Assembly: GCA_965277175.1 (NCBI GenBank)
Contig: OZ255715.1
Span: forward strand, 2,941,216 to 3,005,215
Direction: 5' to 3'
Origin: Edaphobacter sp.
Lineage (GTDB): Bacteria > Acidobacteriota > Terriglobia > Terriglobales > Acidobacteriaceae
DNA: 64,000 bases
Below the pieces are notes generated by a model, which searched no databases, had not been told where the DNA came from, and saw nothing but the letters and a program-made list of their open reading frames with translations. This document shows, in pieces, positions 31,455 to 56,453 of this stretch. The translations under genes and the position numbers were made by a program. Position 1 is the first letter of the stretch, and the number at the start of each line of letters is the position of its first letter.

Positions 31455-31470
31455 AAAATTCGGTCAAAAA
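31455..31470 (-). promoter_or_regulatory. ICE-2 operon-head motif facing xis-int
   Basis: TTTTTGACCGAATTTT; TTGACC-17 bp-TACAAA. Confidence 0.6.
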
Positions 31471-31498
31471 CGCTGTTGTTTTGATTGGGACCGCTCGG

Positions 31499-31514
31499 AA
31501 TTTGACCGAGTTTT
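31499..31514 (+). promoter_or_regulatory. ICE-2 operon-head motif facing transfer operon 1
   Basis: AATTTGACCGAGTTTT. Confidence 0.65.
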
Positions 31515-31525
31515 GGAAGAGCTTC

Positions 31526-31837
31526 ATGCTGACACCGCGTTTGAAGGAGGTGTCTGTGGGAGAACGAACGAAGTACCTCGCGACTGCGGTGTCCGTGACT
31601 GTGCTCGATGCGACCGTGGCCACGTATTACGGCGGCGTGGTCTGGAAAGCATACGCAGTAGTCATCTGGAGCAAGTTGCTGTTGCTCCTATTGGCTGCCG
31701 TATGGACCACGTCACTTCTGCACATCTGGGTTCACGCGTGTTCCCGTCTGCGGCGGGAGAACCAGGAACATCGGGTCGTGGTGTCGATCCCTGTAAACGG
31801 GCTTTCGGCTGAGCTGGCGGAGGAGATCGATGTTTGA
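31526..31837 (+). CDS. Small 2-TM membrane protein
   Basis: VTVLDA...LLHIW; similar to 55455-55712. Confidence 0.6.
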   Translation: MLTPRLKEVSVGERTKYLATAVSVTVLDATVATYYGGVVWKAYAVVIWSKLLLLLLAAVWTTSLLHIWVHACSRLRRENQEHRVVVSIPVNGLSAELAEEIDV

Positions 31838-32750
31838 TTCGTTGTCTGACCTTTCGAGCAAGCTATCGGCAACGGGCTACTTCATCGATCCGGTGATGGT
31901 CCAGGTGGTCTTTCTGGCTGCAAAGCTCAAGAAACCGTTACTGCTCGAAGGACCTGCGGGGTCGGGCAAGACGCAACTTGCCTTGTCCGTCGCCGCAGCC
32001 GCAGACACGCATGTGGAGCGCCTTCAGTGTTATCGCGGTGTCAGTGAGGACAAGGCCATCGGACGCTTCGATGAAGGTTTGCAACGCCTTTATATGGAGT
32101 TCTCGAAGAGTCAACACGAGAACTGGCAGACCGTACAGGCGAGTCTGAAGGGGCGTGACTTCTTCCGCCCAGGTCCACTCATGCGAGCGCTCGAGTGCGA
32201 ACGGCCTTGCGTGCTTCTCATTGATGAGTTGGACAAAGTAGACGATGGATTTGAGGCAATGTTGCTTGAAATACTTTCCGCCTGGCAGTTGTCGATACCA
32301 GAGTTTGGAACAGTGGAAGCCCGCACCATTCCATTCGTTGTGCTGACCAGCAACGAAGAGAGACGCCTCGGCGATCCGATCCGCAGGCGCAGTCTTTACG
32401 TCCGCGTCGAGCACCCAACACCGCAGCGCGAATCGGAGATCATCGCGAGTCGCACTCCTAACGCCGACGCAGAGTTTCACCGTGAGATGGCTGGCATCGC
32501 GCTCTCCTTTCGCAATTACTCGCTCGAAAAGCCGCCTTCCGTCTCCGAGATGATTGATTTCGCCAACGCTCTCCAATTACTTGGCACCGATCATGTGACG
32601 GAAGAGCACCGCGACGTCCTGTTGCCGTTCCTGGCTAAGACCGAGAAAGACCGTCGCCACCTGCTTCTCCGCGAGGGCTTCAAGAGCCTCCTCGATGACG
32701 GTGCTCGTTTCGCCAAGAAGATGGCGCTCGAAGGAGGGCAAGAGTCATGA
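31830..32750 (+). CDS. MoxR-family AAA+ ATPase
   Basis: LLLEGPAGSGKT, RLQCY, LLIDELDK, LTSN, RRR. Confidence 0.88.
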   Translation: MFDSLSDLSSKLSATGYFIDPVMVQVVFLAAKLKKPLLLEGPAGSGKTQLALSVAAAADTHVERLQCYRGVSEDKAIGRFDEGLQRLYMEFSKSQHENWQTVQASLKGRDFFRPGPLMRALECERPCVLLIDELDKVDDGFEAMLLEILSAWQLSIPEFGTVEARTIPFVVLTSNEERRLGDPIRRRSLYVRVEHPTPQRESEIIASRTPNADAEFHREMAGIALSFRNYSLEKPPSVSEMIDFANALQLLGTDHVTEEHRDVLLPFLAKTEKDRRHLLLREGFKSLLDDGARFAKKMALEGGQES

Positions 32751-33244
32751 AACGGTTCCTTCTTTTACTGCTCCTCTTACTGCCTTCCCATTGCAAAGCA
32801 GAGGTCCCGTCCACTTTGGCCGAACGATGTGTCCAGCATTATGCCGCCCAATACAGAGTGCCACCCGAATTGATTGCAGCATTCATCGATGTGGAGTCCG
32901 GATGGAATCCTAACGCTCTATCGAAAAAGAGCGTAGCCGGCGAGCACGCAATGGGGTTGATGCAACTCATGCCCTCAACAGCGCGGCGTTTCGGCGCAGC
33001 GCAGCCGTTCGATGTCGAACAAAACATAGCCGCGGGAACCCGCTATGTGACGACGTTAATGTGGGAGTTTCACGGTGACTTGCGACTCGTTGCTGCAGCT
33101 TACAACGCCGGTGACCGCTGGGTTGGACAAAAACAACTTAACTATCACAATCCCGATGTCATTGCCTATGTGGAGGCGGTTCGTCGGCGATATGTGATGC
33201 GAAAACAAGCGGCCGCAAGGCCATCAAGGAGAGAAACAAGATGA
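32747..33244 (+). CDS. Lytic transglycosylase (VirB1-like)
   Basis: Signal peptide, ESGWNP, GLMQLMP, AYNAG. Confidence 0.92.
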   Translation: MKRFLLLLLLLLPSHCKAEVPSTLAERCVQHYAAQYRVPPELIAAFIDVESGWNPNALSKKSVAGEHAMGLMQLMPSTARRFGAAQPFDVEQNIAAGTRYVTTLMWEFHGDLRLVAAAYNAGDRWVGQKQLNYHNPDVIAYVEAVRRRYVMRKQAAARPSRRETR

Positions 33245-34191
33245 AACTACGTTGGCTCATTCCCATTGCGGTGTTGCTGCCGCTCCGACTCGGAGCTACC
33301 GGGCCTGCCGTAACCGCTCGCGTTCCGACGATCACGATCAATCCGAACCAAGTGACGGCACTTCATCTCCGACCTGAGTTTGAGTCGACGATTCGCATGC
33401 CCGAGGAGATAACTTCTGTCATCCTCGGAAGCCCGAGTTCCTTCAAAGCCGAACACAACGAGGGCGAGCCGCGATATGTCTACGTCAAACCCATCACCAA
33501 AGATCCTGTGCAATCCAACCTTCTGATCGCCACGAAGTCCGGTCAGCATGTGACGTTGGAGCTTATCAGCGACGGAGCCAGTGCTAACAACGCCAATCAA
33601 CCAGTGGACTTTCTGATTGAGTACCGTGTCTCTCGAAGCTTTCTGATCGTCTCTGATGCGGCCGTCCCGGCAATGCCGAAACCCAATGAGAAGGCCGGTC
33701 CCCCTGGTCTGTCCCCGACCCACTCCCCGTCTGCGGTTCCTTCAGCCATCGATCAAGAGTTCGAACAACAGACCAAACTCAATGCTCCCAAGTGGACTAA
33801 ATGGGATGGGAAACAGATCGAGACCTCCATCGGCGATATACGCCAATGGAGCAACGAGACGGTCGTCTCGTATTCGGTCTACAACAGCTCGGATCAGCCA
33901 GTTGAGATCGTCGCTCCACAAATCCAAATCACCGGGCGCAAGACGGAAAAGAAAAAAAAGAAGGAAGGCAAGGGCGTCCTGTCCGATCAACTTGAAATCC
34001 GCGATTACAAGCTCAGCGTGACAAGGCTTGAGGCTGGCGGTCGCGCAGACGGCGTGGTTGTGTTCGACCGCCCGAACTTCAAGCAATCGACCGAGAAGTT
34101 GTTCCTGCAACTCGCCCAGGCGGATCAGGTCGATCGCCCGATCTTGATCCGCCTTCCATTCACCCCACCCATCGCGGCAGAACGCCAATAG
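33241..34191 (+). CDS. VirB9/TraK-like outer-core T4SS protein
   Basis: Signal peptide and beta-rich N-domain (STIRMPEEITSVILG, YVYVKP, SNLLIAT); located between the LT and VirB10. Confidence 0.6.
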   Translation: MKLRWLIPIAVLLPLRLGATGPAVTARVPTITINPNQVTALHLRPEFESTIRMPEEITSVILGSPSSFKAEHNEGEPRYVYVKPITKDPVQSNLLIATKSGQHVTLELISDGASANNANQPVDFLIEYRVSRSFLIVSDAAVPAMPKPNEKAGPPGLSPTHSPSAVPSAIDQEFEQQTKLNAPKWTKWDGKQIETSIGDIRQWSNETVVSYSVYNSSDQPVEIVAPQIQITGRKTEKKKKKEGKGVLSDQLEIRDYKLSVTRLEAGGRADGVVVFDRPNFKQSTEKLFLQLAQADQVDRPILIRLPFTPPIAAERQ

Positions 34192-34199
34192 AGAGGATC

Positions 34200-35960: not shown

Positions 35961-36416
35961 TCAGGAGGGGATGAGGTTGAACCTTCCGCAACGCCGACAC
36001 ATGTAGGTATGTGCCCAGTTCCAATGAAGCTGCGGGTAGATGTCGTGGTTATATCGATAGATTCTGCGAAGGCTCCATGCCAAGCCTCCAACCGACGCGA
36101 GCCAGAAACATAGGAAGATTCCAGCGATCCCTATTTCTGTTGCCGGTATCGTGGAGCGCGCAAGCAGTGCGCTGAGGTCGAAGAAGCTCGAAATGGAAAA
36201 AAGAACTACGAAGAATCCCCAGAGCAAGAATGGCCGGACGTAACCCCGCGCACGGGGTGGCGCTGCTGCTTGTGCGGAATACGATTGGCTTGTGCCGTGA
36301 TTGAACAGGCCGGAGAACGAACGCGTTCCCTGTTGATAGAGGACTGGAACGGCAACAATCTCGGGAGTTCCGCATTGGTCGCAACGATACGAGTTCTGAA
36401 ACGGTAGGGTCGCCAT
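35961..36416 (-). CDS. Hypothetical 2-TM protein with terminal CxxC motifs
   Basis: CDQC near the N-terminus, CRRC near the C-terminus, two hydrophobic segments. Confidence 0.6.
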   Translation of the reverse strand: MATLPFQNSYRCDQCGTPEIVAVPVLYQQGTRSFSGLFNHGTSQSYSAQAAAPPRARGYVRPFLLWGFFVVLFSISSFFDLSALLARSTIPATEIGIAGIFLCFWLASVGGLAWSLRRIYRYNHDIYPQLHWNWAHTYMCRRCGRFNLIPS

Positions 36417-36600
36417 TGCCTGAGCCTTGGACCGCCAAAAGCCTTGCGGCGAGTCAACTCAATCCTCGAGAAGATTTTAGCGCTTTCGCCGGAACGGAGC
36501 CAATTCAGCGAAGCCATCAGAAAGCCCGAAATCCAAATCGTCTCGCAAAACCCACGAGCGATTGACGATATTGTCGACCTGATTTCAAGGTTCGTCCAGA

Positions 36601-36616
36601 AATTTGACTGAGTTTT
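36601..36616 (+). promoter_or_regulatory. ICE-2 operon-head motif facing the pilin-virB4 operon
   Basis: AATTTGACTGAGTTTT. Confidence 0.65.
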
Positions 36617-36682
36617 CGTTCCGACCGATTCTCTGCTTCGACACGGAGGCCCCGAGCACCCGAGTCCAAGAGAGATAGAGAC

Positions 36683-37117
36683 ATGAGAATCACACCAGCC
36701 TTCTGGCGGCGCTCCGACGCGACCGCCGCTTCACTCGCCACTGTCATCCACCGTCCCGAACAAACCAACTGGGTTCGCGCCGCTCTGATGTTTGCATTAG
36801 CTCTCGTGCTTCTTGGGAGCGTGCTGGCACCTCTGGCGGCGACTGCTCAAAACCTTGGGACCTCGCCGCAGTTCGGACAGGCTGTTCAAGGACAGCAGGC
36901 GACCACCGTCGAAGGCACCGTTCTGAATATCGTGAACTGGGCCTGCAATGTCATTGCCCCAGTGATCGCGGTGGCCTGCCTCGGTGTCGCGGGATGGCAC
37001 TTCAAATCCGGTCGCGGTTATATGGGCTGGGGCGTTACCGGCGTAGCGCTGATGGTGATCTCCGGTCTGGGACGTATGGCCGAAGGGTTCATCACGCAAG
37101 CGCAAGGAATCCAGTAA
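36683..37117 (+). CDS. VirB2/TrbC-like pilin (one repeat)
   Basis: Leader, then NWACNVIAP-TM-loop-TM-SGLGRMAEGFITQA; first gene of the virB3-virB4 operon. Confidence 0.6.
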   Translation: MRITPAFWRRSDATAASLATVIHRPEQTNWVRAALMFALALVLLGSVLAPLAATAQNLGTSPQFGQAVQGQQATTVEGTVLNIVNWACNVIAPVIAVACLGVAGWHFKSGRGYMGWGVTGVALMVISGLGRMAEGFITQAQGIQ

Positions 37118-37132
37118 CGAGGTTTCGTCGTC

Positions 37133-37795
37133 ATGCCTGTGCCGCAATTCCTTCTCGATCTTCTCCAGATGCTGCTTGATCTCGCTGTGCCCGCGGCGTT
37201 CCTCACCTTGACCGCCGCGGGAGTGAGTTTACGGCACGAAGGAGGAACCAACTTCCATGTGAATGGCAGGACGGGAAAGTGGGTGTTGTGGACGGTGGTT
37301 CTTCTAACTCTCCCACAACTGTTGTCCTGGGTTGCGGCACAAGGTATCACCGTTCCTTCGGGGAGCGGATCGGTTGGGACGAGTTGGATCGCGAGCATGG
37401 AGACGGTGTTCAAAGCATTCGTCAATCAGATCGTAGTCGCCAAACTGGTTCCTGTTCTTGCTGCTTATTTCGTTCTAAAAGCAACTCTGGATGGAGCAGC
37501 CGGCGAAAATCCACTTCCGTCGATCATCGCCGCGCTGTTCTTAATGTCACTCTCCGCCACCATGCAACTCATGCAGGGCTGGAACTCGGGAGGCCAGTAC
37601 GCAGCTACGGACATGCTCACATCACTGTGGAACTACATCGTTGGGCAGATCATGCCCGCCGCAGCAGGTTTGGCGTGTGTTGGTGCGGTGATCAACTTTG
37701 TGCGGCATAGGCCGTGGACCCGGTTGGTCTTTGCCGCAATTTCTTTCCTGAGCGTGAGTGGATTGCTCACACTCTTCCAGGCGATGGCGGCTTAG
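37133..37795 (+). CDS. Pilin-like membrane protein with three tandem hairpin repeats
   Basis: Three ~70-aa amphipathic-Pro-TM-loop-TM units. Confidence 0.55.
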   Translation: MPVPQFLLDLLQMLLDLAVPAAFLTLTAAGVSLRHEGGTNFHVNGRTGKWVLWTVVLLTLPQLLSWVAAQGITVPSGSGSVGTSWIASMETVFKAFVNQIVVAKLVPVLAAYFVLKATLDGAAGENPLPSIIAALFLMSLSATMQLMQGWNSGGQYAATDMLTSLWNYIVGQIMPAAAGLACVGAVINFVRHRPWTRLVFAAISFLSVSGLLTLFQAMAA

Positions 37796-37804
37796 GAGAA
37801 AACG

Positions 37805-38254
37805 ATGAGTTTGGATGGCGCAATTACGAACCTCGCCTCTTGGGCTGGGAACACCATCATGCCAACGATGGCGGGAATGTTTTTCGCCAGTGCTGTCTAC
37901 CGCTACAGCAAGAGCGGCCCTTTCGAGCACCTCCTCTATGGCGGTTTCGCTTCGCTGATGTGTTCCGGCATGCTTCGCGCGCTCGAAGGCTTTGTGCAAC
38001 ACGCTGGCCCTACCAGTGCCGATGGCTTCTGGATGGCGATGATGAGTCTCGTGAATTGGACTGCCAACGTAATCCTGCCCATGTTCGCGCTTACTCAGCT
38101 CGCAGCGATGGCACTTCATATGGGTGGTGTGGTCTCTGAGATCTACCCAGGCTCGACCTGGATTCGTAAGTTCATCGCGGCGGTGGCTGCGCTGATGGTC
38201 TCAGGGATCGTGCGCTTCGCCGAGTCGATGGTCACGCAGGCACACGGAATTTGA
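37805..38254 (+). CDS. Pilin-like membrane protein with two tandem repeats
   Basis: SWAGNTIMP...SGMLRALEGFVQHA and NWTANVILP...SGIVRFAESMVTQA. Confidence 0.6.
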   Translation: MSLDGAITNLASWAGNTIMPTMAGMFFASAVYRYSKSGPFEHLLYGGFASLMCSGMLRALEGFVQHAGPTSADGFWMAMMSLVNWTANVILPMFALTQLAAMALHMGGVVSEIYPGSTWIRKFIAAVAALMVSGIVRFAESMVTQAHGI

Positions 38255-38264
38255 GGAGGATGTT

Positions 38265-38606
38265 ATGAGTTTGGATTTGACGCCGGTTCACCGCAACCTC
38301 CATACGAAGGTCACGTTTCTTGGCCTCGAGTTTGAGGATCTGATCCTGGTGCTCGCATTGGCGGCTCTCATGAACCTGCTTGCCCACTTTGCCGGGAACG
38401 ATGCTCATTTCCTGGGGATGCCACTCAACATCTTCATGGAGTTTGTCGTGCCGGTGTTGGCCGTTCCGTTTTTGATCCTGTTCAAGTATGGGCGTCCCCG
38501 GGGATATCTGACCGATCTTGTGCGGTCATTCTTCTCGCCCCGCGCGTGGTGCGCACTTGAGCGAGATTCGCAACAAGCAGACCCTTACGTCGTCGAGGAG
38601 GAGTAG
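38265..38606 (+). CDS. VirB3-like protein
   Basis: VTFLGLEFEDL, two TM helices, KYGRPRGYL; upstream of virB4. Confidence 0.65.
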   Translation: MSLDLTPVHRNLHTKVTFLGLEFEDLILVLALAALMNLLAHFAGNDAHFLGMPLNIFMEFVVPVLAVPFLILFKYGRPRGYLTDLVRSFFSPRAWCALERDSQQADPYVVEEE

Positions 38607-38610
38607 CGGT

Positions 38611-38814
38611 ATGCAGGCTTCGATCAATACAGATGCGGACGGAATGGTGAATTGGCGGCTCGATCCAGAGGCAGCTCAGGCTGTATTCGCCAGCGTGGTC
38701 TTCGCCTCGCGATTCCACGAAGGGATTACACCCCTCGCCGTGATGGCGGCAGAAAGATTACATGGCGACGAGCAACCGCGTGCGACCGGAAGGAGAACAG
38801 AACTATGCCAGTGA
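38611..38814 (+). CDS. Small hypothetical protein
   Basis: Fills the gap between the virB3-like gene and virB4; overlaps the virB4 start. Confidence 0.5.
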   Translation: MQASINTDADGMVNWRLDPEAAQAVFASVVFASRFHEGITPLAVMAAERLHGDEQPRATGRRTELCQ

Positions 38815-41453: not shown

Positions 41454-42292
41454 ATGTAGAAGTGAAATCAAACGAGCGGCTTCCGAATGACATCCCCCTT
41501 TTGGGGAGCGAACCAGCCCAAGGGCTGGCCTCTCAATCTCGACGGAAAAAGAGGTTGAGGATCGCCCTTCTGATTCTGGCGACCACCGTTGCGCTGCCAA
41601 CTTTGGGACACGCGCAGTTCCTGACTGCCTTCGACTCGATCTTCAAATCCATTCAGAGCGACATCGGTAGTTCATTGAGCTCTGTCAACCAGATCATGCA
41701 ACAGGTGACAAAGCTGTACCAGACGACGATCGCGCCTCTGGCCGCCCTCAATCAAGCTCGCGGATTTGTCGCCAATTCGATCTCTAGTTTTCGTAACTCA
41801 ATGAACCAAACATTCAACACGCCATTCACAAGTGCGGTTACGCCCGGTCCGCAACAGTTCGAGTCGATCTTGCACAGTCGGCTTTCAACCCAGATTCCGT
41901 CACTTCAGACGAGCTTCACCACGAACTACGGGGCGATACCCCAGGCCAACACCGCATCCCCGCAGGATCGCGTGATGATGGACATGGACGACGCGCTCGG
42001 TCAACAGAACCTGAAGACGACGTTAGTCGCGGATCAAGGTCAAGATCTCATTCTTCAGACTGCGAACCAGATGGAAAATCAGGTCGCGGTAAGCACTCCT
42101 GGTTCGAATCCATACCTCACCGCACAGGCACAGGTCGCAAACCTCCGGTGCCAAGCCTACATGCAAATGATGATTGCGGCAGAACTGCGCCAGGAGGCCG
42201 GCCGCATCGCTCACGACAATGTTCTCGTCAAGCGCAGGACCACCATGACCGGTGGAGTGAACAGCCTCATCACAGGGACGCTGACCAAATAA
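41450..42292 (+). CDS. VirB5/TrbJ-like secreted helical protein A
   Basis: Signal peptide (GHAQ), Q/N/T-rich helical; lies between virB4 and virB6. Confidence 0.55.
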   Translation: MNVEVKSNERLPNDIPLLGSEPAQGLASQSRRKKRLRIALLILATTVALPTLGHAQFLTAFDSIFKSIQSDIGSSLSSVNQIMQQVTKLYQTTIAPLAALNQARGFVANSISSFRNSMNQTFNTPFTSAVTPGPQQFESILHSRLSTQIPSLQTSFTTNYGAIPQANTASPQDRVMMDMDDALGQQNLKTTLVADQGQDLILQTANQMENQVAVSTPGSNPYLTAQAQVANLRCQAYMQMMIAAELRQEAGRIAHDNVLVKRRTTMTGGVNSLITGTLTK

Positions 42293-42302
42293 GGAGGACG
42301 CC

Positions 42303-43211: not shown

Positions 43212-43218
43212 CACCATC

Positions 43219-44643: not shown

Positions 44644-44651
44644 GAGGACCC

Positions 44652-45694: not shown

Positions 45695-45930
45695 GGCCGC
45701 TTGGTCACGGGATTCAAAGAGGAGACATACCTGAAACACGGCTAATGTCCACCTCCTTTGACGCCTTATCGCTTTTGCGATGAGGAATTCCGCTGACCCG
45801 GTTTGCACTCTCGAACCTGGCTCGGTCTACACCCACCCCTAACCCGGGCGGCCAGGTGAAGAGATAAAGAAACCGGCGATCAGCAGGTCTCTTGTCACTT
45901 CGTTGGAAGCGCCAGACAAGTGAGGAGAAA

Positions 45931-48513
45931 ATGACAGCGACTAGGACACAGAACACGGCGATCAACCATCAGCTCATTCTCGAGCTGAAGATTGATGCGT
46001 CCGGACAAGTGACTCGTAAACAAAGCAAGCTGGGCAGGAAGGATACGCTCGAGGGCAAGCTCCTTGCGCAAGTCTATCCGGGCATCCAGGTAGCGCGTGT
46101 CAGTGTGCCGTTTGAATTGGCGCCGTATGAGCAGTCAGTGGTCGAGAACACCATGATGAAGCTCTCCTATGGCGGGGTCGAGTACAGGCTCGTCGGTGCG
46201 AGTGGTTCGGCGAAGGATGGCAAGTTTTACTTCGTTGATCAAACGCACGCCGGCAAGATTGCTGAGCGCTTTCAGCATTGGCCCGAGGCAGCGATCGTGT
46301 ATTTCGCGATCCTCGTCTCCGACTGCAAGCTAATGGTAGAAGAACCTGATCTCCGTATCGCTGTTGTCGAGGACCACGTCCTTGGCACCAACGATTGCAG
46401 GGGTTGGGCGCGTGAGTCTCTCTACAAGAAGCTGAAGATCGGCACCAACCGTTTTTGCCAGTTCCGGTTAGCATTCGATGTTCGCGAACCGAAACAGGCG
46501 AAGGGTGCTCTGAAGGCGATGAGCGATCGCGTAGCCGAAAGGCTCGGGGTTGATCTTATTCTCCCGGAGAGCGCCTGCAAACCAGCGTTGAAAGGAAGCG
46601 TTCGCTTCCTTCCTCAGTTGGGAACCTCCGGCCGCATGTACACCGGACCAGCGTATCTCGGGATCAAAGAAGTTTCTCGAGTATCGGAGTTCGGGTCGAG
46701 CTACACATTGATCGAACATGCATCGGAAGACGCTCTTCAGTTTGAGATCATGCTTTGGGCTCTCAAACGGATCAGCAAGCTGAGAAAGGCTTGGGACGAA
46801 GGCGACTATCAGGCGTTGTTCGAGATCATCGGGAAATCCGAGATCGCCGCGAACGATGATGATGTCAGCTTCGATCCTGATTCACTGGAGCAGGGACAAG
46901 ATTCTGCTTCGGAAGGATGGGACCCGGCAGAAGCTGTTCTCTTGGCTGACCGCACCGGAAACGCAATTAAGTTCCCGTATGTGTTCAATCAACTGAACCG
47001 CAAGTTGGCACGTTGGGCCTTTCGTACCTGTACTGGCGGTGATCTGAAACTACCAGCGTTCGCTCTCGCGGATGATGGAGTGCTCATCGAGCATCGAGGG
47101 AAGATCATTTCGGCTTCGGATTGGATTCCCGAGGACACCTCCATTACGTCCCTGACGGCAGAAAAGGGTCTTTGCGTCCGGTACCCCATCCGGATGCAGG
47201 AGGACCTCCTTCCAGTTCGTCACCTCACTAATAACGAGTTCGTCCCGATGTTGAAACAGGCATTGGGCGCACCCGATCTTGATGAATCGGTGGTTGCTCA
47301 CATTCTTGATCGTCAGCTTCGCATGGAGGGAACCTACATCCTTCACTCGAAGACGGCCAGCAAGAACGGCGGTGACTTCGATTTCGATACCATCTGCGTG
47401 ATGCCGTCCGATCAGTTCCCAAAGTTTATCGAGGGAAGGATCGCGTACGGAGAGAAGTTTCAGCAGGAAAAGACCAAGCATAAGAAGGCGAAGTCTCCCT
47501 GGTGGAATGTTTATCTGGTTGCCATGAAGGCACGGGGAAACAAGATCGGTTCCATCACCGATCTTAAGACCTCATGTCTAGCGGCGGGACGGCCTGATTT
47601 GGCTTACAAGCTCGTCGAGCAACTCCAGAACGCACTCGATTCTTTGAAACACAAGGTCGAGATTGATGAATCCGTCATAAGCGACATCCGGAAGGAGATA
47701 GCACCGGCACCTTGGCTCCGTTACAAACGTGAGCGTAAAGTGTCGGATCTACCGGCCCATCTGAACGATGTTGCAAGCACGGACAAGGTTGGAAGGCTCT
47801 ATAACGTACTGCGCAAGGAATTCGGCTTTCTGCCCAGTCCGACTGACGGCAACTTCGAAGAAAGAATGTCGATTGAGGATTTTCGCGGACTCTTTACAGG
47901 TGAGACAGTCACCCGAGAGATGTTCGAGGAATGCCAACTCGTCAATTCAATCTACGGAGATATCGCCAGTCGAATTGTCCAACGGGAAGAAGAGATCAAG
48001 CTGCAGCTCAAGAACGCTCAGGCTCTATGGGAGGCCGTCCGCAAGAGTGAGGACAAGGAACAGCGAAAGTCTGCTGTCCTTGCTCGCAATAAAGCGCAGG
48101 CGGCCCTTTGGGAGCATGAGAAGGATGCGAAGGACCAGTTCAGTTCGCTCCATCTATTTGTGCATTATTGGGCGCAAGGCAAGGAAGAAAACCGTCGGGC
48201 ATGGGCACAGGCGATGAACACCATCGTAACTGGTGGCACAGGCTCGGGGGCGGTACTCTTTCAGGCTTTCCCTCAAGAGGTTGTCGATACCTTTGCGGAG
48301 GTCACCGGCGGCCAAAAGGTTCGTGTACGTCTTCCGAAAACCATCAATGGACACGTTCGGTTTGACCCTGAGCAGCGAGCCTGGCTCGTCGAGCGCTTGG
48401 TCAATCCCGAAGGCCCTGAAGGTGAGAAGAAGGTCTTTCTCTTTCAATACAAGGGAAAGCGGAACCTGGTCTTCGAAAACACGAGTGCTCCGGCTGTGAT
48501 GGAGAACTCTTAA
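45931..48513 (+). CDS. Putative single-subunit two-barrel RNA polymerase (RdRP/YonO-like)
   Basis: Ordered motifs YRLVGASGS, NDCRG, QFR...KG, SACK, RYP...EDL, GGDFDFD (47368-47388), IGSITD, ALDSLK; RBS GAGGAG. Confidence 0.75.
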   Translation: MTATRTQNTAINHQLILELKIDASGQVTRKQSKLGRKDTLEGKLLAQVYPGIQVARVSVPFELAPYEQSVVENTMMKLSYGGVEYRLVGASGSAKDGKFYFVDQTHAGKIAERFQHWPEAAIVYFAILVSDCKLMVEEPDLRIAVVEDHVLGTNDCRGWARESLYKKLKIGTNRFCQFRLAFDVREPKQAKGALKAMSDRVAERLGVDLILPESACKPALKGSVRFLPQLGTSGRMYTGPAYLGIKEVSRVSEFGSSYTLIEHASEDALQFEIMLWALKRISKLRKAWDEGDYQALFEIIGKSEIAANDDDVSFDPDSLEQGQDSASEGWDPAEAVLLADRTGNAIKFPYVFNQLNRKLARWAFRTCTGGDLKLPAFALADDGVLIEHRGKIISASDWIPEDTSITSLTAEKGLCVRYPIRMQEDLLPVRHLTNNEFVPMLKQALGAPDLDESVVAHILDRQLRMEGTYILHSKTASKNGGDFDFDTICVMPSDQFPKFIEGRIAYGEKFQQEKTKHKKAKSPWWNVYLVAMKARGNKIGSITDLKTSCLAAGRPDLAYKLVEQLQNALDSLKHKVEIDESVISDIRKEIAPAPWLRYKRERKVSDLPAHLNDVASTDKVGRLYNVLRKEFGFLPSPTDGNFEERMSIEDFRGLFTGETVTREMFEECQLVNSIYGDIASRIVQREEEIKLQLKNAQALWEAVRKSEDKEQRKSAVLARNKAQAALWEHEKDAKDQFSSLHLFVHYWAQGKEENRRAWAQAMNTIVTGGTGSGAVLFQAFPQEVVDTFAEVTGGQKVRVRLPKTINGHVRFDPEQRAWLVERLVNPEGPEGEKKVFLFQYKGKRNLVFENTSAPAVMENS

Positions 48514-48517
48514 CCGT

Positions 48518-48560
48518 AAGGGAGAAGCTTGGCATATTGCCGGCTTCTCCTTTGCTTTTT
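48518..48560 (+). terminator. Intrinsic terminator after the polymerase gene
   Basis: AAGGGAGAAGC...GCTTCTCCTTT stem with an inner TGGCA/TGCCG stem, followed by a T-rich tail. Confidence 0.7.
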
Positions 48561-48586
48561 ATCAGAGTGTGCCCAAGGAGGCCGCT

Positions 48587-49432
48587 ATGAAGATGCTCAT
48601 CACCATTCCGATCGCCTTGGCGATGACCGTGGCAGGGGCACAAACGACCAGCCAAAATCAGATTCGTCATGTGGAGACATCGCTGAATCATCTGACGGTC
48701 CTCGAGTTCGGCGAACCCGTGTCTACCATTGCCGTAGCTGATACCGACAGCTTTCGCGTGGAACATCACGACGACAAAGTCTTCGTCGAGCCGCTTCGCG
48801 AAGGGGTTGCGACCAATCTGTTCATCTGGACCGAATCGCGCCAGCTCACCTACGAACTTGATCCCGCCGGACAGTTAGCAACCATGGACGTCCTCATTCG
48901 GACCGAGCCTGCTCCCAAGCCTCATAGTGTCGCGAACGCTTCCGCGGAGCCAAGCGACGCTGAGATCCGTAAGATGGCATCCCTTGTTCTGACGCAGGCG
49001 ATGATGGGGGTACAGGACGTGTCCCACGATGGCTCCAAGTCCATTGCCGATCGAGTGCAGGTTGATCTCGAGCAGGTCTATCGTGCAAAAGACCAGCTCT
49101 ACATTCGCTACTCCATCACCAATCAAACGAAGGAACCATTCCGGCTCACGACTCCCGATGTGTCCGCACCGCTTCCCACCCAGTTGCCGATCTCTCTATT
49201 GAGCTTGCGCAACCACCAGCTCTCGACTCAGACGTTCGATGCCTTCAAGGCAAAACCCGGCAGCACTTTTACGGTGGTACAAGCTGAATCCTTAGGCCAC
49301 GATCTAGCTCCAGGCCAGAAGACCACCGGAGTGCTCAGCATTGGAAGCCCTCAGGGGAACCCACCCCAGCTCTTTCAACTCAATTTCGGCAGCGACCAGG
49401 GTAAGCCTCTCAAGGTTGAGGCCGTCCTCTAG
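48587..49432 (+). CDS. Second VirB9/TraK-like secreted protein
   Basis: Signal peptide; LTVLEFGEPVSTIAVA, KVFVEP, TNLFIWT resemble the N-domain of 33241-34191. Confidence 0.55.
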   Translation: MKMLITIPIALAMTVAGAQTTSQNQIRHVETSLNHLTVLEFGEPVSTIAVADTDSFRVEHHDDKVFVEPLREGVATNLFIWTESRQLTYELDPAGQLATMDVLIRTEPAPKPHSVANASAEPSDAEIRKMASLVLTQAMMGVQDVSHDGSKSIADRVQVDLEQVYRAKDQLYIRYSITNQTKEPFRLTTPDVSAPLPTQLPISLLSLRNHQLSTQTFDAFKAKPGSTFTVVQAESLGHDLAPGQKTTGVLSIGSPQGNPPQLFQLNFGSDQGKPLKVEAVL

Positions 49433-49434
49433 TC

Positions 49435-49671
49435 ATGGACGCGCAAGGCCATGTCACGCCAGAGGAGATTCGCAGAGCGCTCCTCACGATGTATCGAGGC
49501 GATACCGAATCGAATCTGCAGCGCGCGCTCCTTCGCCTCCTGGCCGACGATCTCAAACCTATTGATGAGCGAGGCCGCTGGAAGCCAAGCCCGCTTCTCA
49601 TTCTGATCGTTGTTCTTGTCTGCGCCCTGGTTGGAGTTTTCCTTTACTTCACGATTGGAGCCCGTCGATGA
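49435..49671 (+). CDS. Small membrane protein
   Basis: C-terminal TM helix; coupled to the T4CP gene. Confidence 0.6.
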   Translation: MDAQGHVTPEEIRRALLTMYRGDTESNLQRALLRLLADDLKPIDERGRWKPSPLLILIVVLVCALVGVFLYFTIGARR

Positions 49672-51464
49672 GTCCTGCATACGAACCACCTCCACGGAGG
49701 TTTCAACCGGGACCCGAAGATGTGACCGGCGTCCTTGTCCTTTTCGGATGTGCTGTGCTGGCCTTCGGCTGGTATGTCGCCGTCTCCCGATTGCACCTAC
49801 GCAATTCCCAATGCCTCGAACTCTTCATGGACTTTGCCGTGCTGTTTTTCGGTGGTGGGCTCGTGATCGCCCAACTTGCGGGCAAGAGGCGCAAACGCGA
49901 GGAGAACTGGCCCCATCCTCCTCTCTTTGTTCCGTCGCTCACAGACAGCAAAATCGCTCGTGAGACCAATCGGGATGCCGCGACGTTGCTCGGATATAAC
50001 GTCCACGAGGAGCCTTGGCTGTGGCCCGATGTCGTTCGCATGAAGCACGGTGTCATTGTCGGTGGCACCGGCGCGGGCAAATCGACGTTCCTGGAAAATA
50101 TCATTGCTCAGGACCTGATGCGTCGATTTGGGAGCCGCAAGATGCCAATGATCATCTTCGACGGCAAGGGCGAACGGGAATTCCTTGACCGCCTTCTGCC
50201 GCACATCGAGGCGGCTGGGCGTCTGCAGGACCTCCGTGTTCTCGATCCGACGCACCCCACAGAGTCGGCTCGTTACAACCCCTTCTATGCACTCGACGAC
50301 GCCTATCAGGAGCACGTTAATTTCGTCTTTCGGTCTTTCGGCTTGCGAGAGGATTTCTTCAAGGGGCACCAGGAAGCGTATTTGTCCGACCTTGTTCGCA
50401 TCCTCCAGTACACCGGCAAGCTGTTCAATGTATACGACGTGTTGGTCATGGCACTCGACGAGAACGTCCTCCAGGAGCAGATAGGGATCGCCAAAGGCCG
50501 CCTTGCCTCTCTGGCCGGCGTCTCAATGCAAAGGCGATTGAACTTTGAGATGTCGGTGCGGATGTTACAGCGGTCCCTCGCCGACCGGGAGCGCGTGGAG
50601 AAGATTCAGGGATTATTGAACGAGCTTCTGAGCTTTCTGGAGGACGAGCTTTCCATCGTAACCGGGTCATATCAGGATCTCTTGACCCTGGACGATGTAT
50701 TTGAGCAAGACCTTATTCTGTTCGTCTCGCTCAACACGAATCGCAATCAACGTGCGGTCGAGGCTCTGGGAAAGATCCTGCTGCAGAACATCCAGCTCAT
50801 GGTCGGCAAGCGTTACGCGCGCGCCACCGGCGAGAGAGACGCGAACGAACCGATGCTCTCGGTGATCCTCGATGAGTTCGCTCCGTTTGCCTATCCGGGA
50901 TTTACGCAAGTTCTTCAGACCGCACGAGGCGCCAGAGTGTCTTTCCTGTTTTCTTTCCAGAGCCTGCCCCAGTTGCAGCGGGTTAGCCAGGCATTCTCAG
51001 ACGAGGTATCCTCCGCGCCGGGCACCAAGATGATCATGAATGTGTCCGAAGAGAATACGGCGCAATGGTTCCTGAAGGCGTCAGCCAAAGTCACGACAAA
51101 ACGTCGCAGCTTATCTGTACGCAGGACCGGCCTCTTCTCGCCCAAGTACACCGAAACCGGGACCGGCAGCGAGAGTGACATCAAGGAAACGCGAGCGCGG
51201 GAAGACCACATCAAGAATCTTCCCGTGGGTCAGATGGAGATATTGATGGTGGACAGTCGAGAAGGCACGCGCTACTCCCACCTCCATGTCCGTCGTGCCC
51301 CCAGCTTCCGCATCGAGGGGCTCGCCCCGCGGCTCTATCCGAAGATGCACAGTTATCTTGACCCGGAAGTTGGTGTCAACCTCCGTTTCAAAGAGACAGA
51401 GAATCGAAAACAACGACGCAGAAGAATGGCGGGAGTATCTCTCGACACGTCCACAGGAGAGTGA
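49668..51464 (+). CDS. Type IV coupling protein (VirD4/TraG-TraD family)
   Basis: Two TM helices, GGTGAGKS, FDGKG, YNP, ILDEF, ARGARV..FSFQS. Confidence 0.9.
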   Translation: MSPAYEPPPRRFQPGPEDVTGVLVLFGCAVLAFGWYVAVSRLHLRNSQCLELFMDFAVLFFGGGLVIAQLAGKRRKREENWPHPPLFVPSLTDSKIARETNRDAATLLGYNVHEEPWLWPDVVRMKHGVIVGGTGAGKSTFLENIIAQDLMRRFGSRKMPMIIFDGKGEREFLDRLLPHIEAAGRLQDLRVLDPTHPTESARYNPFYALDDAYQEHVNFVFRSFGLREDFFKGHQEAYLSDLVRILQYTGKLFNVYDVLVMALDENVLQEQIGIAKGRLASLAGVSMQRRLNFEMSVRMLQRSLADRERVEKIQGLLNELLSFLEDELSIVTGSYQDLLTLDDVFEQDLILFVSLNTNRNQRAVEALGKILLQNIQLMVGKRYARATGERDANEPMLSVILDEFAPFAYPGFTQVLQTARGARVSFLFSFQSLPQLQRVSQAFSDEVSSAPGTKMIMNVSEENTAQWFLKASAKVTTKRRSLSVRRTGLFSPKYTETGTGSESDIKETRAREDHIKNLPVGQMEILMVDSREGTRYSHLHVRRAPSFRIEGLAPRLYPKMHSYLDPEVGVNLRFKETENRKQRRRRMAGVSLDTSTGE

Positions 51465-52219
51465 AGATGACCCGGCTTTCAATGACTCTCTGCGCGCTGA
51501 TGCTTGCTTTTGCGGCCCCCTCCTCCGGCCAAACGCTCAATCCGGCAGCGCCATCGCAACATCCCCCGCGCAAGCAGGAGGGTTTCTTTGACTTCGTGCT
51601 CGGCAAGATCAATCCCAGCGGAAACGACTATGGCGCGCGGATGCAATCCGGCCGGGATGCTGTCGTTGTAAACACGGTCGATGATTTGTATTTCTGGTCG
51701 AATGCAATGACCCTCCTTTTGCTCACCGGATCGGTGGCCGTCATCTTGTTGCAATGGAGATCGGAGGCCAAAAGAGAGGTCATCACCGCGTCCATCATTG
51801 CCGAGCTTTGGAACGGCCGGGTCAGCGATGGAATAGAACTCAATCGCCGCACAGAGCAGTTCAATCAGCTTGTCGCCACTCACAATGCAGACGTAGAGAA
51901 GGCTCTCGCGCTCAAGCAGCAACAGCAAGGGTCGGACAAAGAGACATCAGGGAATCTCACTCGGAACGTTCGCAAGCTCACAGAGAATGACTCGAGCACG
52001 GGACGGAAGGCTGTTCCTCCCGAGCCGCCAGTAGTTGAGGTGGCCAATGTTCCTGCTGCGGATGGCGGCAGTGGGAATCTACAGCAATCCAATCTGTTGC
52101 TCCAGCGAAGGATCGAGGCGATGCAAAACACAGAGCAAAACCTGAAGCAACGTCTCAGCCAAACGACCGCCCTCCTCGATCAGGAGCGCCGCCGCAATGC
52201 CACCCTCAAGGGCGCATAG
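51461..52219 (+). CDS. Hypothetical exported/membrane coiled-coil protein
   Basis: Signal peptide, one TM helix, C-terminal heptads. Confidence 0.65.
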   Translation: MKMTRLSMTLCALMLAFAAPSSGQTLNPAAPSQHPPRKQEGFFDFVLGKINPSGNDYGARMQSGRDAVVVNTVDDLYFWSNAMTLLLLTGSVAVILLQWRSEAKREVITASIIAELWNGRVSDGIELNRRTEQFNQLVATHNADVEKALALKQQQQGSDKETSGNLTRNVRKLTENDSSTGRKAVPPEPPVVEVANVPAADGGSGNLQQSNLLLQRRIEAMQNTEQNLKQRLSQTTALLDQERRRNATLKGA

Positions 52220-52229
52220 AAAGGTCGAT

Positions 52230-52904
52230 ATGCCCATCCGGAGCAGAACCGAATTTGCCAGCCAGGAAGAATGGACCGCGTACGTGCGCGATTTCGTCCC
52301 AGTCGTTGAGTGTGAGTACGTCCTCGCGTGTGGACGCACCGAACTATTCAAGAGCTTCTACGAAGTGCGGAAGCAGGAGTTTCCCGCTGAATACACAGAA
52401 GAATTGGGGCGCATTCAAACCCTCTCCGAACCTCGCCGGACCGACAGCCTTCAGCGTTTGAATGAGCGAATCTTTGCCGGCCTCACGGAATTGCTGTTCC
52501 ACCAGACACAGCTCAAACGAATCGAGGCAGCTCCACTCGCTCCCGTTTCTCTGAAGGAACAAGTCCAGGAGTTACTAAATCATCTTGCGGAGAAGAACCC
52601 GTACTTCGCCCTCTGGGTTGATTACAAGCGAGGACTTGCGGAGAACTTACAGACACAAGACTGGGATCAATATCTGCGGAAGGAACTCGGACCAGCCGAC
52701 GAGGACGCCATCGTCTTCGCCAAAGCGATGGCCGATCTGGACAAGCTCCTGCTCCATTTCCGGGATCAGAACGTGCCATTGCCGCGTTATTTCTTCGAGC
52801 GTGCCTGGTTCCTTCACTATTTGCGCAGCCCGGAACGGATGCTCCAGACACGAGCTCTCTTGAACACACTTGCCACGGAGACCGGGGAATGTACGTGCGC
52901 GTAA
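52230..52904 (+). CDS. Hypothetical protein
   Basis: In-operon ORF with RBS. Confidence 0.65.
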   Translation: MPIRSRTEFASQEEWTAYVRDFVPVVECEYVLACGRTELFKSFYEVRKQEFPAEYTEELGRIQTLSEPRRTDSLQRLNERIFAGLTELLFHQTQLKRIEAAPLAPVSLKEQVQELLNHLAEKNPYFALWVDYKRGLAENLQTQDWDQYLRKELGPADEDAIVFAKAMADLDKLLLHFRDQNVPLPRYFFERAWFLHYLRSPERMLQTRALLNTLATETGECTCA

Positions 52905-53425
52905 TCAACTTCGGAACGAACTGGTGGATGATGCACCCATCGGATAAGGACGATCCTTACTGCTTTCGCCGGCGCGCGGCCTACTTCAATGCGGCAGCTC
53001 TGAAATCGGGCAGGCGCCTTCATCACAGTGCGATCTATCCCGGACAAATCAGGTTCAACACACAAAGCGGATTCGATCCGGAGTTTCCGTCGCGCGCGAT
53101 CGGTAGGACATTTCTCTGCTCGGGGCCTAACCAGTTCGCTGGGAAAGTACATCTCCTGTTCCAACGATTGGCGAAGGACGTCGATCCAGACGGCTATTTG
53201 GTGGTTCTCAATTCGTTTGAGCATGGCCTGATTCGGTTCCGCGAACCGGGGTGGGCGTCGTCTGGTGTGAACCCGATCTCGATCAGCATGAGAGGTCAGA
53301 GGTTCGAAGCCATGCTGTTGCTTAGAGCAGGCGATTGGATTGAAAGCGATCTCGGGCGCTGGCGTGTAAGCGAAAACGGTGACGGTCTCTCACTCTTCTA
53401 CGGGCAGGACGGTAGGTTCTCATGA
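52889..53425 (+). CDS. Hypothetical protein
   Basis: Overlaps both neighbours; ATGA-coupled to the relaxase. Confidence 0.65.
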   Translation: MYVRVINFGTNWWMMHPSDKDDPYCFRRRAAYFNAAALKSGRRLHHSAIYPGQIRFNTQSGFDPEFPSRAIGRTFLCSGPNQFAGKVHLLFQRLAKDVDPDGYLVVLNSFEHGLIRFREPGWASSGVNPISISMRGQRFEAMLLLRAGDWIESDLGRWRVSENGDGLSLFYGQDGRFS

Positions 53426-54201
53426 GGTATTACAAAGGCTATATCGCTCTATCCGAAGCACGCGACGTGCCCGTCTTGCTCCATATCCGCAACGCTCGCG
53501 CCATCTGTTTCGACCAACTCTTCGAGCTAATCTCGCTCGAAATGGAGGCTCCCCTGGTGCGATCTCTCCGTTGGCGCGTCGCGCGACTGGTAAAGGCTGG
53601 CCTCCTTTCACGGCTGGAAACATACCGACATCTTGGGAAACCAGTCCTCGGAATTACGCACCAAGGTCTCGAATGCCTTGAAGCACGCGGCCATTATTTG
53701 CTCTCCCTGCCAAGCAACGCCGAACAGATTTTGCACCCATCCCAGGTGCCGCATGCGTTAGAACTCGTGAATATCCGCATCGCTCTGGCGAAGGGCGGCC
53801 TGCTTCGCTCCTGGAAATGCGAACTCGAAATCACCTCGCGGAATCTGGTTGTCGAGAGTTCAGCAACCAAAGATTACGACGCCATCGCGGAGATCGCGTT
53901 CGATGGAGACTGCAAACGGCTGGCAATTGAGTACGAGAGGAATCCGAAGGCGGCGCAGCGGTATCGCGCCATCCGTGACGTACTCGACAAGGACGAGACG
54001 GCGGATACGATTCTCTATCTGACTTCGAACGACGATATCTTGTACCTTCTCGCTGTCGAGATGCGATCTTGCCGGAGACAGATTGGCTTCGCGCTGAGTG
54101 AATCCTTCCGGCGATCCTTGCTCGAAACGCGCACCTTGACCAACACAGAAGACTCAGCAGTCGTCTCGTTGCGAGATCTCCTCGCGGCCAAAGGGCGATA
54201 G
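53422..54201 (+). CDS. MOBC-family relaxase (Replic_Relax domain)
   Basis: wHTH N-terminus, PHAL, and D-x16-E-Y-E-R-x2-K-x3-R-Y (53878-53964), the MOBC signature. Confidence 0.82.
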   Translation: MRYYKGYIALSEARDVPVLLHIRNARAICFDQLFELISLEMEAPLVRSLRWRVARLVKAGLLSRLETYRHLGKPVLGITHQGLECLEARGHYLLSLPSNAEQILHPSQVPHALELVNIRIALAKGGLLRSWKCELEITSRNLVVESSATKDYDAIAEIAFDGDCKRLAIEYERNPKAAQRYRAIRDVLDKDETADTILYLTSNDDILYLLAVEMRSCRRQIGFALSESFRRSLLETRTLTNTEDSAVVSLRDLLAAKGR

Positions 54202-54225
54202 CTAATCCTGTTTTCTTCTAAATCT

Positions 54226-54360
54226 CTTTGACTACCTATCGTGGAGCGATTGCAGTTGCAATGGCTCTCCATTGGCGACCTTTTGACTGACTTTGCATTG
54301 CTTTTGACTAGAATCGGCCCCTCCTAACTCTCTTTCCTTCTATGACTTGCTTCTTGACTA
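54226..54360. other. Candidate oriT of ICE-2
   Basis: Non-coding, directly after the relaxase; imperfect hairpin at 54243-54270 plus TTGACT repeats at 54228, 54283, 54304, 54354 (ATGACT at 54342). Confidence 0.45.
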
Positions 54361-55291: not shown

Positions 55292-55454
55292 CGGAGAATT
55301 CGTCGGCTACGGCAGAACCAACTTTTCCTACTTTGCCCAGAGCCATCCCGTCTGTCGTTCGATGGTGCGTTAGCGCGCCACAGAACATCCACCGCGCAAT
55401 CCACACCGCCCAACCCAAACTGCACGCACCGTGCCACAACGGAAAGGATTTCCC

Positions 55455-55712
55455 ATGCCCAATATTCCTCGCATTGTCTCGGCTCCGGTCGAGTACATCC
55501 CCGTCCTATCAGCCCGCTTCGCCCGGCGCGTGGCGGTGTGTGTTCTCGTGACCGTGCTCGATGTGGCCGTCACCTCCACTTGCGCTCCCCCGCTTTATCA
55601 GGTGAGTGCGGCCCATCCAGTGTGGCTTGCAGGGCTAGCGGTTCTGTTCGCCGCGATGTTCCTCACGCTCGTTCACATCTGGTTTCGTACGCTGCGCGGA
55701 CGCTCGCGCTAG
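55455..55712 (+). CDS. Small 2-TM membrane protein (paralog of 31526-31837)
   Basis: VTVLDV...LVHIW. Confidence 0.6.
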   Translation: MPNIPRIVSAPVEYIPVLSARFARRVAVCVLVTVLDVAVTSTCAPPLYQVSAAHPVWLAGLAVLFAAMFLTLVHIWFRTLRGRSR

Positions 55713-55756
55713 GAGTGAATGTCCACAAACCCAAACCGCAAGAGAGGAGATTCACC

Positions 55757-56125
55757 ATGAGACGAGCTTTAGGAAAGATGTCTGTCCACCACTTGTTCGA
55801 CTGGCGCAATCGCGTCGGCGACACCGTTCAGGAAACCATCGAAGCCTTCCTCAAAGACGGCGAGGTTGGTGAGCATGTCGCAGCGCGCTGGATCGAGACT
55901 CCCAAAGGCGTCATGATCCTGCAAATGATGAAAGACGACCCGGAATGCGGTGGTGTCTTCGTCTTCGATCGCGAATCCGCGCAATGGTACCTGCTCGATT
56001 TCGAGCGCTTCGATCGGCCGTTCACCCCGAATTTGTTTGACCGCATTTTCCGGGAATACAAGCTCTTCGCATTCCTGGATCAACCCGGGCTGTTGTCCAA
56101 AAAGCAGCAGTCGGCAACCGCTTAG
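55757..56125 (+). CDS. Hypothetical protein
   Basis: RBS AGGAGA, globular composition. Confidence 0.65.
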   Translation: MRRALGKMSVHHLFDWRNRVGDTVQETIEAFLKDGEVGEHVAARWIETPKGVMILQMMKDDPECGGVFVFDRESAQWYLLDFERFDRPFTPNLFDRIFREYKLFAFLDQPGLLSKKQQSATA

Positions 56126-56188
56126 TCCATTCCCCCCATCGCACGACCCCAAAACTAAAACCCAACTTCCATTCTAGGAGGAGTCACC

Positions 56189-56371
56189 ATGCGTCTGTCC
56201 GCAGGCCGTATTCGTTCGATCAACCGCAGCATAGCAAGAGTCAATGGCATCATCTGTGGTGCTTCTGACAGGATTCCGCGCCGTCCACTCGAATTCCCGA
56301 AAACCTCCGGGGCGTCGATTCCGCCACACACGATCAAGGTCGTAGCCGTTCCAAAATCCATCGCCGCCTAA
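56189..56371 (+). CDS. Small hypothetical protein
   Basis: Strong RBS AGGAGG; 60 aa. Confidence 0.45.
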   Translation: MRLSAGRIRSINRSIARVNGIICGASDRIPRRPLEFPKTSGASIPPHTIKVVAVPKSIAA

Positions 56372-56437
56372 CCCTGATGCTCCCGGATACGGCGGGCTGG
56401 ACGTGCCACAAGAGCACATCCGCCCGCCGATCTGGCA

Positions 56438-56453
56438 AATTTGACCGAGTTTG
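56438..56453 (+). promoter_or_regulatory. ICE-2 operon-head motif facing the primase-ssb operon
   Basis: AATTTGACCGAGTTTG; TTGACC-17 bp-TACAAC. Confidence 0.65.

Follow-up and report, generated by a model that had tools for sequence, protein, structure and literature searches.

The main operons of ICE-2, an integrative and conjugative element (ICE) of an acidobacterium (Edaphobacter sp.), are each headed by the same 13-base box, TTTGACYGAGTTT. The element was studied in a window which is the whole 64,000-nucleotide stretch C1:2941216-3005215 of the source genome, and positions given below without a contig or locus name are counted from its first letter. The box has at its centre the hexamer TTGACY, preceded by an A/T lead-in and followed by GA(G/A)TTT, and it stands at a fixed distance from a second, poorer hexamer downstream. 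The explanation that we favour, to which we give a slightly better than even chance, is that these are promoters of the host sigma-A enzyme which share a private extension of the -35 element, that this extension is read by a putative trans-acting factor, and that the promoters would together form one transfer regulon.

Exact matches to TTTGACYGARTTT occur four times in the window, against 0.01 expected from dinucleotide-preserving shuffles, and four or more were reached in none of 100 shuffles. In the whole genome, a single contig of 4,726,447 bp with 59% G+C, the exact motif occurs five times and the reversed control pattern not at all, and no copy of the five is contained in a long open reading frame. 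The four copies of the window are all intergenic and each points at the gene downstream of it, as a preliminary description of this DNA had stated of four operon heads. When up to one mismatch is allowed, 11 matches appear outside the window against 9 for the reversed pattern, most of them inside long open frames; thus the matches outside the window are at control level, the motif is not common genome-wide, and there is no host regulon. The wide genomic distribution which the preliminary description had named as fatal to its proposal is therefore not found. Its fifth, weaker site at 54280-54295 has to be given up, since this one-mismatch look-alike has no counterpart in any sister element and sits in a cluster of four TTGACT (54228-54360), in the 268-bp gap after the MobC-like gene, where sister elements have between 0 and 2; being specific to this element, the cluster is likewise rejected as a conserved feature of an origin of transfer (oriT). 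A second one-mismatch match, at 56036, is inside the open reading frame (ORF) 55538-56125.

The four exact copies, called here boxes A to D, share one geometry (Table 1). In all of them the -35 is TTGACC or TTGACT, the host consensus, and exactly 17 bp after it come the hexamers already proposed as -10 elements in the preliminary description, TACAAA at A, CATGCT at B, GATTCT at C and TACAAC at D, which match TATAAT at three or four of the six positions and are below the threshold of a generic promoter scan. As read from the letters, the overall shape of the promoter is that of a strong -35 with a weak -10. By assignments made with Pfam and NCBIfam, the operon of box B contains a small membrane protein, a MoxR-like AAA ATPase, an SLT transglycosylase, a 316-aa gene and a TrbI-like gene; that of box C, three pilin-like genes, a VirB4/TraC-like gene, a TrbL-like gene, an 860-aa protein, a CagX/VirB9-like gene, the coupling protein (T4CP) and a relaxase-type protein of the MobC family; and that of box D, an AEP primase, a 216-aa gene, a single-stranded DNA-binding protein (SSB) and a Rad52-type annealing protein. 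With the excision genes behind box A, boxes A to D together head the genes for excision of the element, for its mating channel and for DNA processing.

Table 1. The boxes of ICE-2 and associated features, in window coordinates (aa, amino acids; TM, transmembrane).
Feature	Sequence	Position	Strand	-35	-10-like hexamer	Remarks
Box A	TTTGACCGAATTT	31456..31468	-	TTGACC, 31462-31467	TACAAA, 31439-31444	exact match; heads xis-int; 17-bp spacer; xis ATG at 31399
Box B	TTTGACCGAGTTT	31501..31513	+	31502-31507	CATGCT, 31525-31530	exact match; back to back with box A, 45 bp start to start
Box C	TTTGACTGAGTTT	36603..36615	+	36604-36609	GATTCT, 36627-36632	exact match; heads long operon 36683-54201
Box D	TTTGACCGAGTTT	56440..56452	+	56441-56446	TACAAC, 56464-56469	exact match; ATG at 56497
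Integrase (tyrosine)		29792-31057	-			predicted to be driven by box A
HTH_17 Xis-like gene		31067-31399	-			predicted to be driven by box A
151-aa protein gene		35961..36416	-			conserved; two TM helices, CxxC pairs at both ends; divergent from box C
860-aa two-barrel RNA-polymerase-like protein		45931..48513	+			inside the box C operon
One-mismatch look-alike	TTTGACTGACTTT	54282..54294	+			not a family member

The same places are occupied in related elements. In 49 sister loci fetched around the gene of the 860-aa protein there are 48 exact boxes, all on the strand of that gene, and the orthologous places with respect to it are about 9.3 kb upstream for site C and about 10 kb downstream for site D. 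Twenty sister genomes scanned whole yielded 61 matches to the motif against 5 for the reversed control, the typical arrangement being a co-oriented triplet B-C-D in which D and C are some 20 kb apart and B is about 5 kb beyond C, and L059, L061, L064 and L065 have divergent copies of the A type 100-150 bp left of box B. When these regions are aligned, the 60 bp upstream of the box are unconserved except for one A directly before it, the 13-mer is invariant or nearly so, and after it come 11 variable bases and then a hexamer specific to the class, exactly 17 bp past TTGACC, which is CATGCT at B, (c/g)ATTCT at C and TACAAC at D. Over 17 elements the footprint of site B consists of the invariant box and of CATGCT, best conserved at its second A and sixth T, and these are the two bases of the -10 that are read by region 2 of sigma-70. 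The A at position 2 is present in all classes; the T at position 6 is present only at sites B and C (CATGCT, nATTCT). Site C shows the same footprint when it is extracted by an anchor in the downstream leader and not by the motif itself.

As to the limits of this conservation, the loci without an exact box have near-variants in the same position (…GAGTTC, …GAAATT, …GAGTCC), so that TTTGACYGA is the most constrained part. In the boxes examined, positions 1-2 of the spacer are an unvarying GA even in elements with proteins as little as 44% identical, and the 11 bases that follow are free to vary. The exact box is still there in elements with backbone proteins of only 44-57% identity; in G245, for example, whose backbone proteins are 44-49% identical, it is found 121 nt upstream of the AEP primase gene. 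In one distant element, L049, with a polymerase-like protein 46% identical, no variant of the box was found, the head of the pilin operon being at the edge of the locus. The intergenic gaps of L049 contain tandem repeats of the heptamers AGTGACA and AATCGSC (641-678, 1424-1475, 8646-8677; 5157-5190, 13803-13836).

Two parts of different character can be told apart within these promoters. The tRNA promoters of the host have the form TTGACC or TTGACA, 17 bp, TAnAnT, with examples such as tRNA-Met (TTGACC-17-TATATT), tRNA-Asn (TTGACC-17-TATAAC) and tRNA-Gly (TTGACC-17-TATACT), and since they carry TTGACC, the centre of the box is the preferred housekeeping -35 of the host. The extension, on the contrary, is missing from the host: outside the integrated array, 128 candidates of the form TTGACn-17-nAnnnN have a flat spacer composition, and in not one of them does the spacer begin with GA(A/G)(A/T)T, so that GAGTTT is rejected as a general feature of host spacers; the A/T lead-in is likewise missing from the host candidates, and it and the extension are private to these elements. 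The preliminary description had suggested, as one of two readings, a sigma70 -35 overlapped by an operator; this is the one that the evidence favours, given that TTGACC is the -35 of the host, that the spacing is 17 bp and that the GAGTTT extension is private, and the operator read by a protein is its putative half.

The box is found together with diverse genes of excision. On the left side of box B, an integrase and a small HTH_17 gene are present in every sister element, and these int/xis modules belong to at least four non-orthologous subfamilies and differ in orientation, with the box unchanged; in L066, L068 and L072, moreover, there is one more box, TTTGATCGAGTTT, at the head of a co-oriented int-xis operon whose end is at box B. 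The copy at C1:3926546, the fifth in the genome, is upstream of a gene of the AlpA family (PF05930, E=1e-19), convergent with an integrase next to a tRNA-Gln, on an island without protein or nucleotide similarity to ICE-2 except for the box. Stand-alone islands with the order box, helix-turn-helix (HTH) gene, integrase are present in L075, L082 and L093, L088 also carries the box on an island unrelated to ICE-2, and in G141 the order is box, integrase, 72-aa ORF, a second box with a CATGCT -10, and then unrelated genes. Among 14 orphan copies that were examined, about half are promoters of mobile elements and the rest are chance matches in conserved coding sequence.

Two further observations concern these modules. 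The tRNA-Gln island corresponds to L006 10000-12168 (C1:3926546-3928714), and its integrase, which matches only the arm-binding and central domains, may be degenerate, no match to the catalytic domain being reported. In the source metagenome, contigs of runs X1-X4 branch at positions 31499, 31545 and 35688 of the window, and the alternative contigs are similar to it only from 31499, the start of box B; the branching at this point indicates that co-resident variant elements share the transfer module and differ on the int/xis side.

If we accept the explanation presented at the outset, the TTGACY centre would be the -35 hexamer read by the housekeeping (sigma-A) RNA polymerase of the host, and each operon would supply, 17 bp downstream, its own deliberately weak -10. 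The A/T lead-in and GA(G/A)TTT, that is, the first six bases of the spacer, would not be needed by the host enzyme, and these flanking positions would have been retained for their recognition by a diffusible factor, the probable product of a gene of the element, which would gate all the box promoters together. The poverty of the -10 elements makes it somewhat likelier that such a reader would be an activator, or a co-factor in contact with sigma region 4, than a repressor. In this way, the operons of xis-int, of assembly of the type IV secretion system, of pilus, channel, coupling protein and relaxase, and of primase, SSB and Rad52 would fire as a unit, and unrelated small islands with the same box on their excision genes could respond to the same signal.

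Several results weigh against this explanation. The -10 of sites A and D (TACAAA, TACAAC) lacks the T at the sixth position; the box is asymmetric and there is one per promoter, unlike classical dimeric operators; and no candidate for the reader was found, the only DNA-binding protein seen in the backbone being the Xis-like HTH protein, which co-varies with the integrase and not with the box. None of the 18 genes of the sigma-70 family of the host is in the element (C1:2970954-3122293), and an activator of the FlhC type (PF05280) is absent genome-wide at E<=1, with no such domain in the backbone ORFs. Lastly, a metatranscriptome contig from a 97%-identical relative begins at 36621, 6 nt after box C, a point upstream of where sigma-70 geometry would put the start, although molecules that run across box D are present in the same libraries.

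The search for the reader covered other possibilities. The Xis-like HTH protein is rejected, since the same box is accompanied by at least four non-orthologous Xis/Int modules and Xis proteins, which track the integrase, are poor candidates. For an operator of a dimeric repressor (cI, ImmR, SetR), TTTGACCGAGTTT offers no dyad symmetry, not being self-complementary (its reverse complement is AAACTCGGTCAAA), and neither a cI-like HTH gene nor a peptidase gene was found in the backbone. Beyond the right end of the window, the conserved backbone has no recognisable regulator either, so that the remark of the preliminary description that no dedicated regulator is visible holds for the window and also beyond it. 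The genes on that side, which encode an SNF2-like helicase of 766 aa and a cassette of the PRTRC type (Prok_Ub of 71 aa, Prok-E2_D, a ThiF-like E1 and PRTRC_E), are located in L007 2741-10477, equivalent to 66.7-74.5 kb in window coordinates, and in the stretch from window position 63476 to L007 1776. The conserved 151-aa protein, which is found in 46 sister loci at about 52% identity, does not look DNA-binding; its gene runs divergently from box C, and the promoter of that gene must also be in the intergenic region 36417-36602.

With regard to RNA, the four public runs that hold the exact sequence are DNA metagenomes with flat coverage, and in metatranscriptomes only relatives are present, at depths of 2-9. 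At site D, every matching contig from RNA libraries continues for 48-140 nt upstream of the box, and given that these contigs run across it, the libraries contain DNA or read-through molecules and the contig end at 36621 is unreliable. The divergent relatives that match at site D resemble the window over no more than 56437/8 to 56474/5, a stretch which is exactly the core promoter predicted there, from about -38 to +1. Relatives of the first pilin-like gene (window 36650-37150) appear at low depth in metatranscriptome libraries from decaying wood, soil, peat and permafrost, which suggests that the operon of box C is transcribed in nature, although these libraries also hold molecules that are not transcripts.

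The product of the box C operon that deserves most attention is the 860-aa protein. It has more than 1,400 homologs, all annotated as hypothetical, and those that are named belong to Acidobacteriaceae, such as Acidicapsa and Telmatobacter; by sequence it has no match in Pfam, PHROGs or NCBIfam, nor in phmmer and profile searches of the PDB. A single-sequence AlphaFold2 (AF2) model was unusable, with a mean predicted local distance difference test (pLDDT) of 38, and an alignment of 27 diverse homologs gave a usable AlphaFold model (pLDDT 86, predicted TM-score (pTM) 0.84). When this model was compared with known structures by Foldseek, the only significant matches were single-subunit two-barrel RNA polymerases of Thermus phages, namely 8f72 (P32 gp64 RNA polymerase, E=3.5e-8), 8f5m (P74 gp62) and 8h2n (P23-45 gp96 RNA polymerase, E=7e-5), trailed by weak matches to double-psi beta-barrel (DPBB) domains and to beta-prime chains of multisubunit polymerases. 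The alignment of the homologs shows, furthermore, an invariant G481-D482-x-D484-x-D486 (GGDFDFD). The element thus does encode a polymerase-like protein of the YonO/gp64 class.

A homolog of this protein is present in 27 of the 251 genomes of the family, and at least two canonical boxes are found in 6 of these 27 against 3 of the 224 others (Fisher p=6e-5). The association is nevertheless not strict: many genomes with the polymerase have no box, and three near-complete genomes, G141, G242 and G092, have two or three canonical boxes and neither a polymerase nor a VirB4 homolog of the family. G092 is rejected as a clean case of a box without polymerase, as it holds a partial, probably mobilizable element that could depend on a helper. 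Elements with polymerases 43-52% identical are mostly without a box and G245 (44%) has it exact, from which it follows that the presence of the box does not go with polymerase similarity.

The second reading of the preliminary description was that the box is the promoter of the ICE polymerase, and the fold of the 860-aa protein gives it substance. According to this alternative, the box would be the promoter, or a promoter-specificity element, of the two-barrel enzyme, and the ICE would transcribe its own transfer genes, possibly also on the incoming DNA in the recipient. The resemblance to P32 gp64, P74 gp62 and P23-45 gp96 and the three invariant aspartates speak for it, as do the private motifs used by the related phage enzymes just upstream of the start site (PMC10770324), the privacy of the box to the elements and the lack of a transcription factor in the backbone, together with the statistical association of two or more boxes with the gene and the RNA contig that starts 6 nt after box C. 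However, the box holds an exact host -35, 17 bp from class-specific hexamers with conserved positions of the -11A/-7T type, which makes a footprint of two blocks and not one contiguous motif reaching the start site; canonical boxes are present without the polymerase in G141, G242 and G092 and on the unrelated island, and they do not follow polymerase similarity; the gene is itself inside the box C operon, where no separate promoter was predicted for it; and the contig ends, which come from libraries with molecules that run across box D, are unreliable. On this balance we hold self-transcription by the ICE to be unlikely.

The absence of a known regulator also agrees with plain host promoters that have no dedicated reader, in which an ancestral promoter would have been copied to the operon heads and kept by selection on its strength, for instance with the strong -35 and a favourable shape of the flanking DNA offsetting the weak -10 elements. 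The -35 and the spacing are certainly perfect for the host enzyme. Yet spacer bases are normally unconstrained and here GA is invariant down to 44% protein identity, the extension never appears in the host promoter candidates, it is the full 13-mer, not TTGACC alone, that the unrelated islands retain, and an integrated element would pay dearly for expressing its excision and transfer genes all the time; hence only a small share of the probability falls to this explanation. If, instead, the extension were read by a conserved transcription factor or nucleoid protein of the host, by which the element would sense the state of the host, one could understand that the box is letter-perfect across many genera while the proteins of the element drift, as would be expected with a slowly evolving host protein, and that boxes persist in genomes without a complete ICE of the family; but there is no host regulon, no intergenic copy outside mobile elements, and the matches with up to one mismatch are at control level (11 versus 9), which leaves a host reader quite improbable. 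Less probable still, indeed very much so, is that the box should be the -35 element of an alternative sigma factor, either of the extracytoplasmic function (ECF) type or of group 3: the long invariant motif on the -35 side and the number of sigma-70-family genes of the host (18) invite the idea, and are countered by the fact that such regulons share a characteristic -10, which here differs by operon class, by the lack of a sigma gene in the element, and by a -35 that equals the housekeeping consensus.

Some features of the surroundings should be recorded. The attachment (att) core CACCTTCACACGGTG, which belongs to the anticodon arm of tRNA-Val, is found three times: in an intact tRNA-Val (window 2106), at the junction of ICE-1 and ICE-2 (29739) and at C1:3122293. 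The third copy, equivalent to window position ~181078 and thus some 117 kb past the end of the window, has the full 3′ half of tRNA-Val, and a further complete tRNA-Val is located 230-306 bp before it; from the three copies, the integrated array may span about 179 kb. Directly upstream of box D is a hairpin (56390-56429, cggcggg…cccgccg), the stem of which in sister loci is changed yet still complementary (ggcgagc/gctcgcc, ccggaagcggc/gccgcttccgg), and which is probably the terminator of the preceding operon. In two sister elements the VirB4-like genes have in-frame stops (one TAG and two TGA; G124:C179:149352-152123 and G204:C4:154428-157193), and these are pseudogenes or assembly errors.

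The element family is widespread in metagenomes of soil, peat and wood, and in the searchable literature no description was found of the family, its box or its polymerase, nor of ICE regulation in Acidobacteriota. In silico, the box delimits the whole transfer regulon of the element, and it provides a 13-bp handle with which to find related ICEs and their dependent small islands. It is also a concrete DNA template on which the function of an unusual two-barrel RNA polymerase could be tested, and if that polymerase did read the box, these would be self-transcribing conjugative elements with a private polymerase-promoter pair, copied by islands for their co-induction.

Among known systems, the middle promoters of phage T4 have a MotA box that replaces the -35 next to a strong sigma-70 -10 (sigma appropriation), and this box is read by a factor encoded by the phage together with the host polymerase. 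They resemble the promoters of ICE-2 in that the -35 region holds an asymmetric box of about 9-13 bp, separated from the -10 by a constant interval (about 11-13 bp), and differ from them in that ICE-2 combines a canonical -35 with a weak -10; no MotA-like or AsiA-like gene was detected, though no test was aimed at this comparison. The phage systems of two-barrel polymerases share with ICE-2 a structurally related enzyme and a private motif conserved at operon heads. Nonetheless, their promoter motifs (P23-45 gp64, gp96) are a single contiguous block within -30 to +1 (PMC10770324), that of SPbeta YonO is undefined (PMC5467207), and the block described here coincides with the host -35, has a -10-like hexamer 17 bp away and is also present where the polymerase is missing.

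Of the documented systems, the nearest is the box regulon of SetCD/AcaCD, the master activators of the SXT/R391 ICEs and of the IncA/C plasmids (PMC4344509, PMC4207636). SetCD boxes are found at the xis, int, tra and recombination operons, in some cases back to back, and also on mobilizable islands (PMC4344509), which thereby respond to the helper element (PMC4344509). ICE-2 likewise has a short motif at or next to the -35 of int/xis, of several transfer operons and of a recombination operon, with back-to-back boxes at divergent promoters and copies on unrelated islands. The SetCD box, however, is of 19 bp, lies upstream of or overlaps a degenerate -35, and has as its reader an FlhCD-like complex encoded by the element (PMC4344509). 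By contrast, the box of ICE-2 is itself a perfect host -35 that runs downstream into the spacer, the -10 is the weak part, the genome has no FlhC homolog, and the class II pattern of activation, where the box offsets a missing or degenerate -35, is not seen. Because this architecture differs from that of the class II activator boxes of the SXT/IncC elements, the reader of the ICE-2 box may act in a way that has not yet been described.

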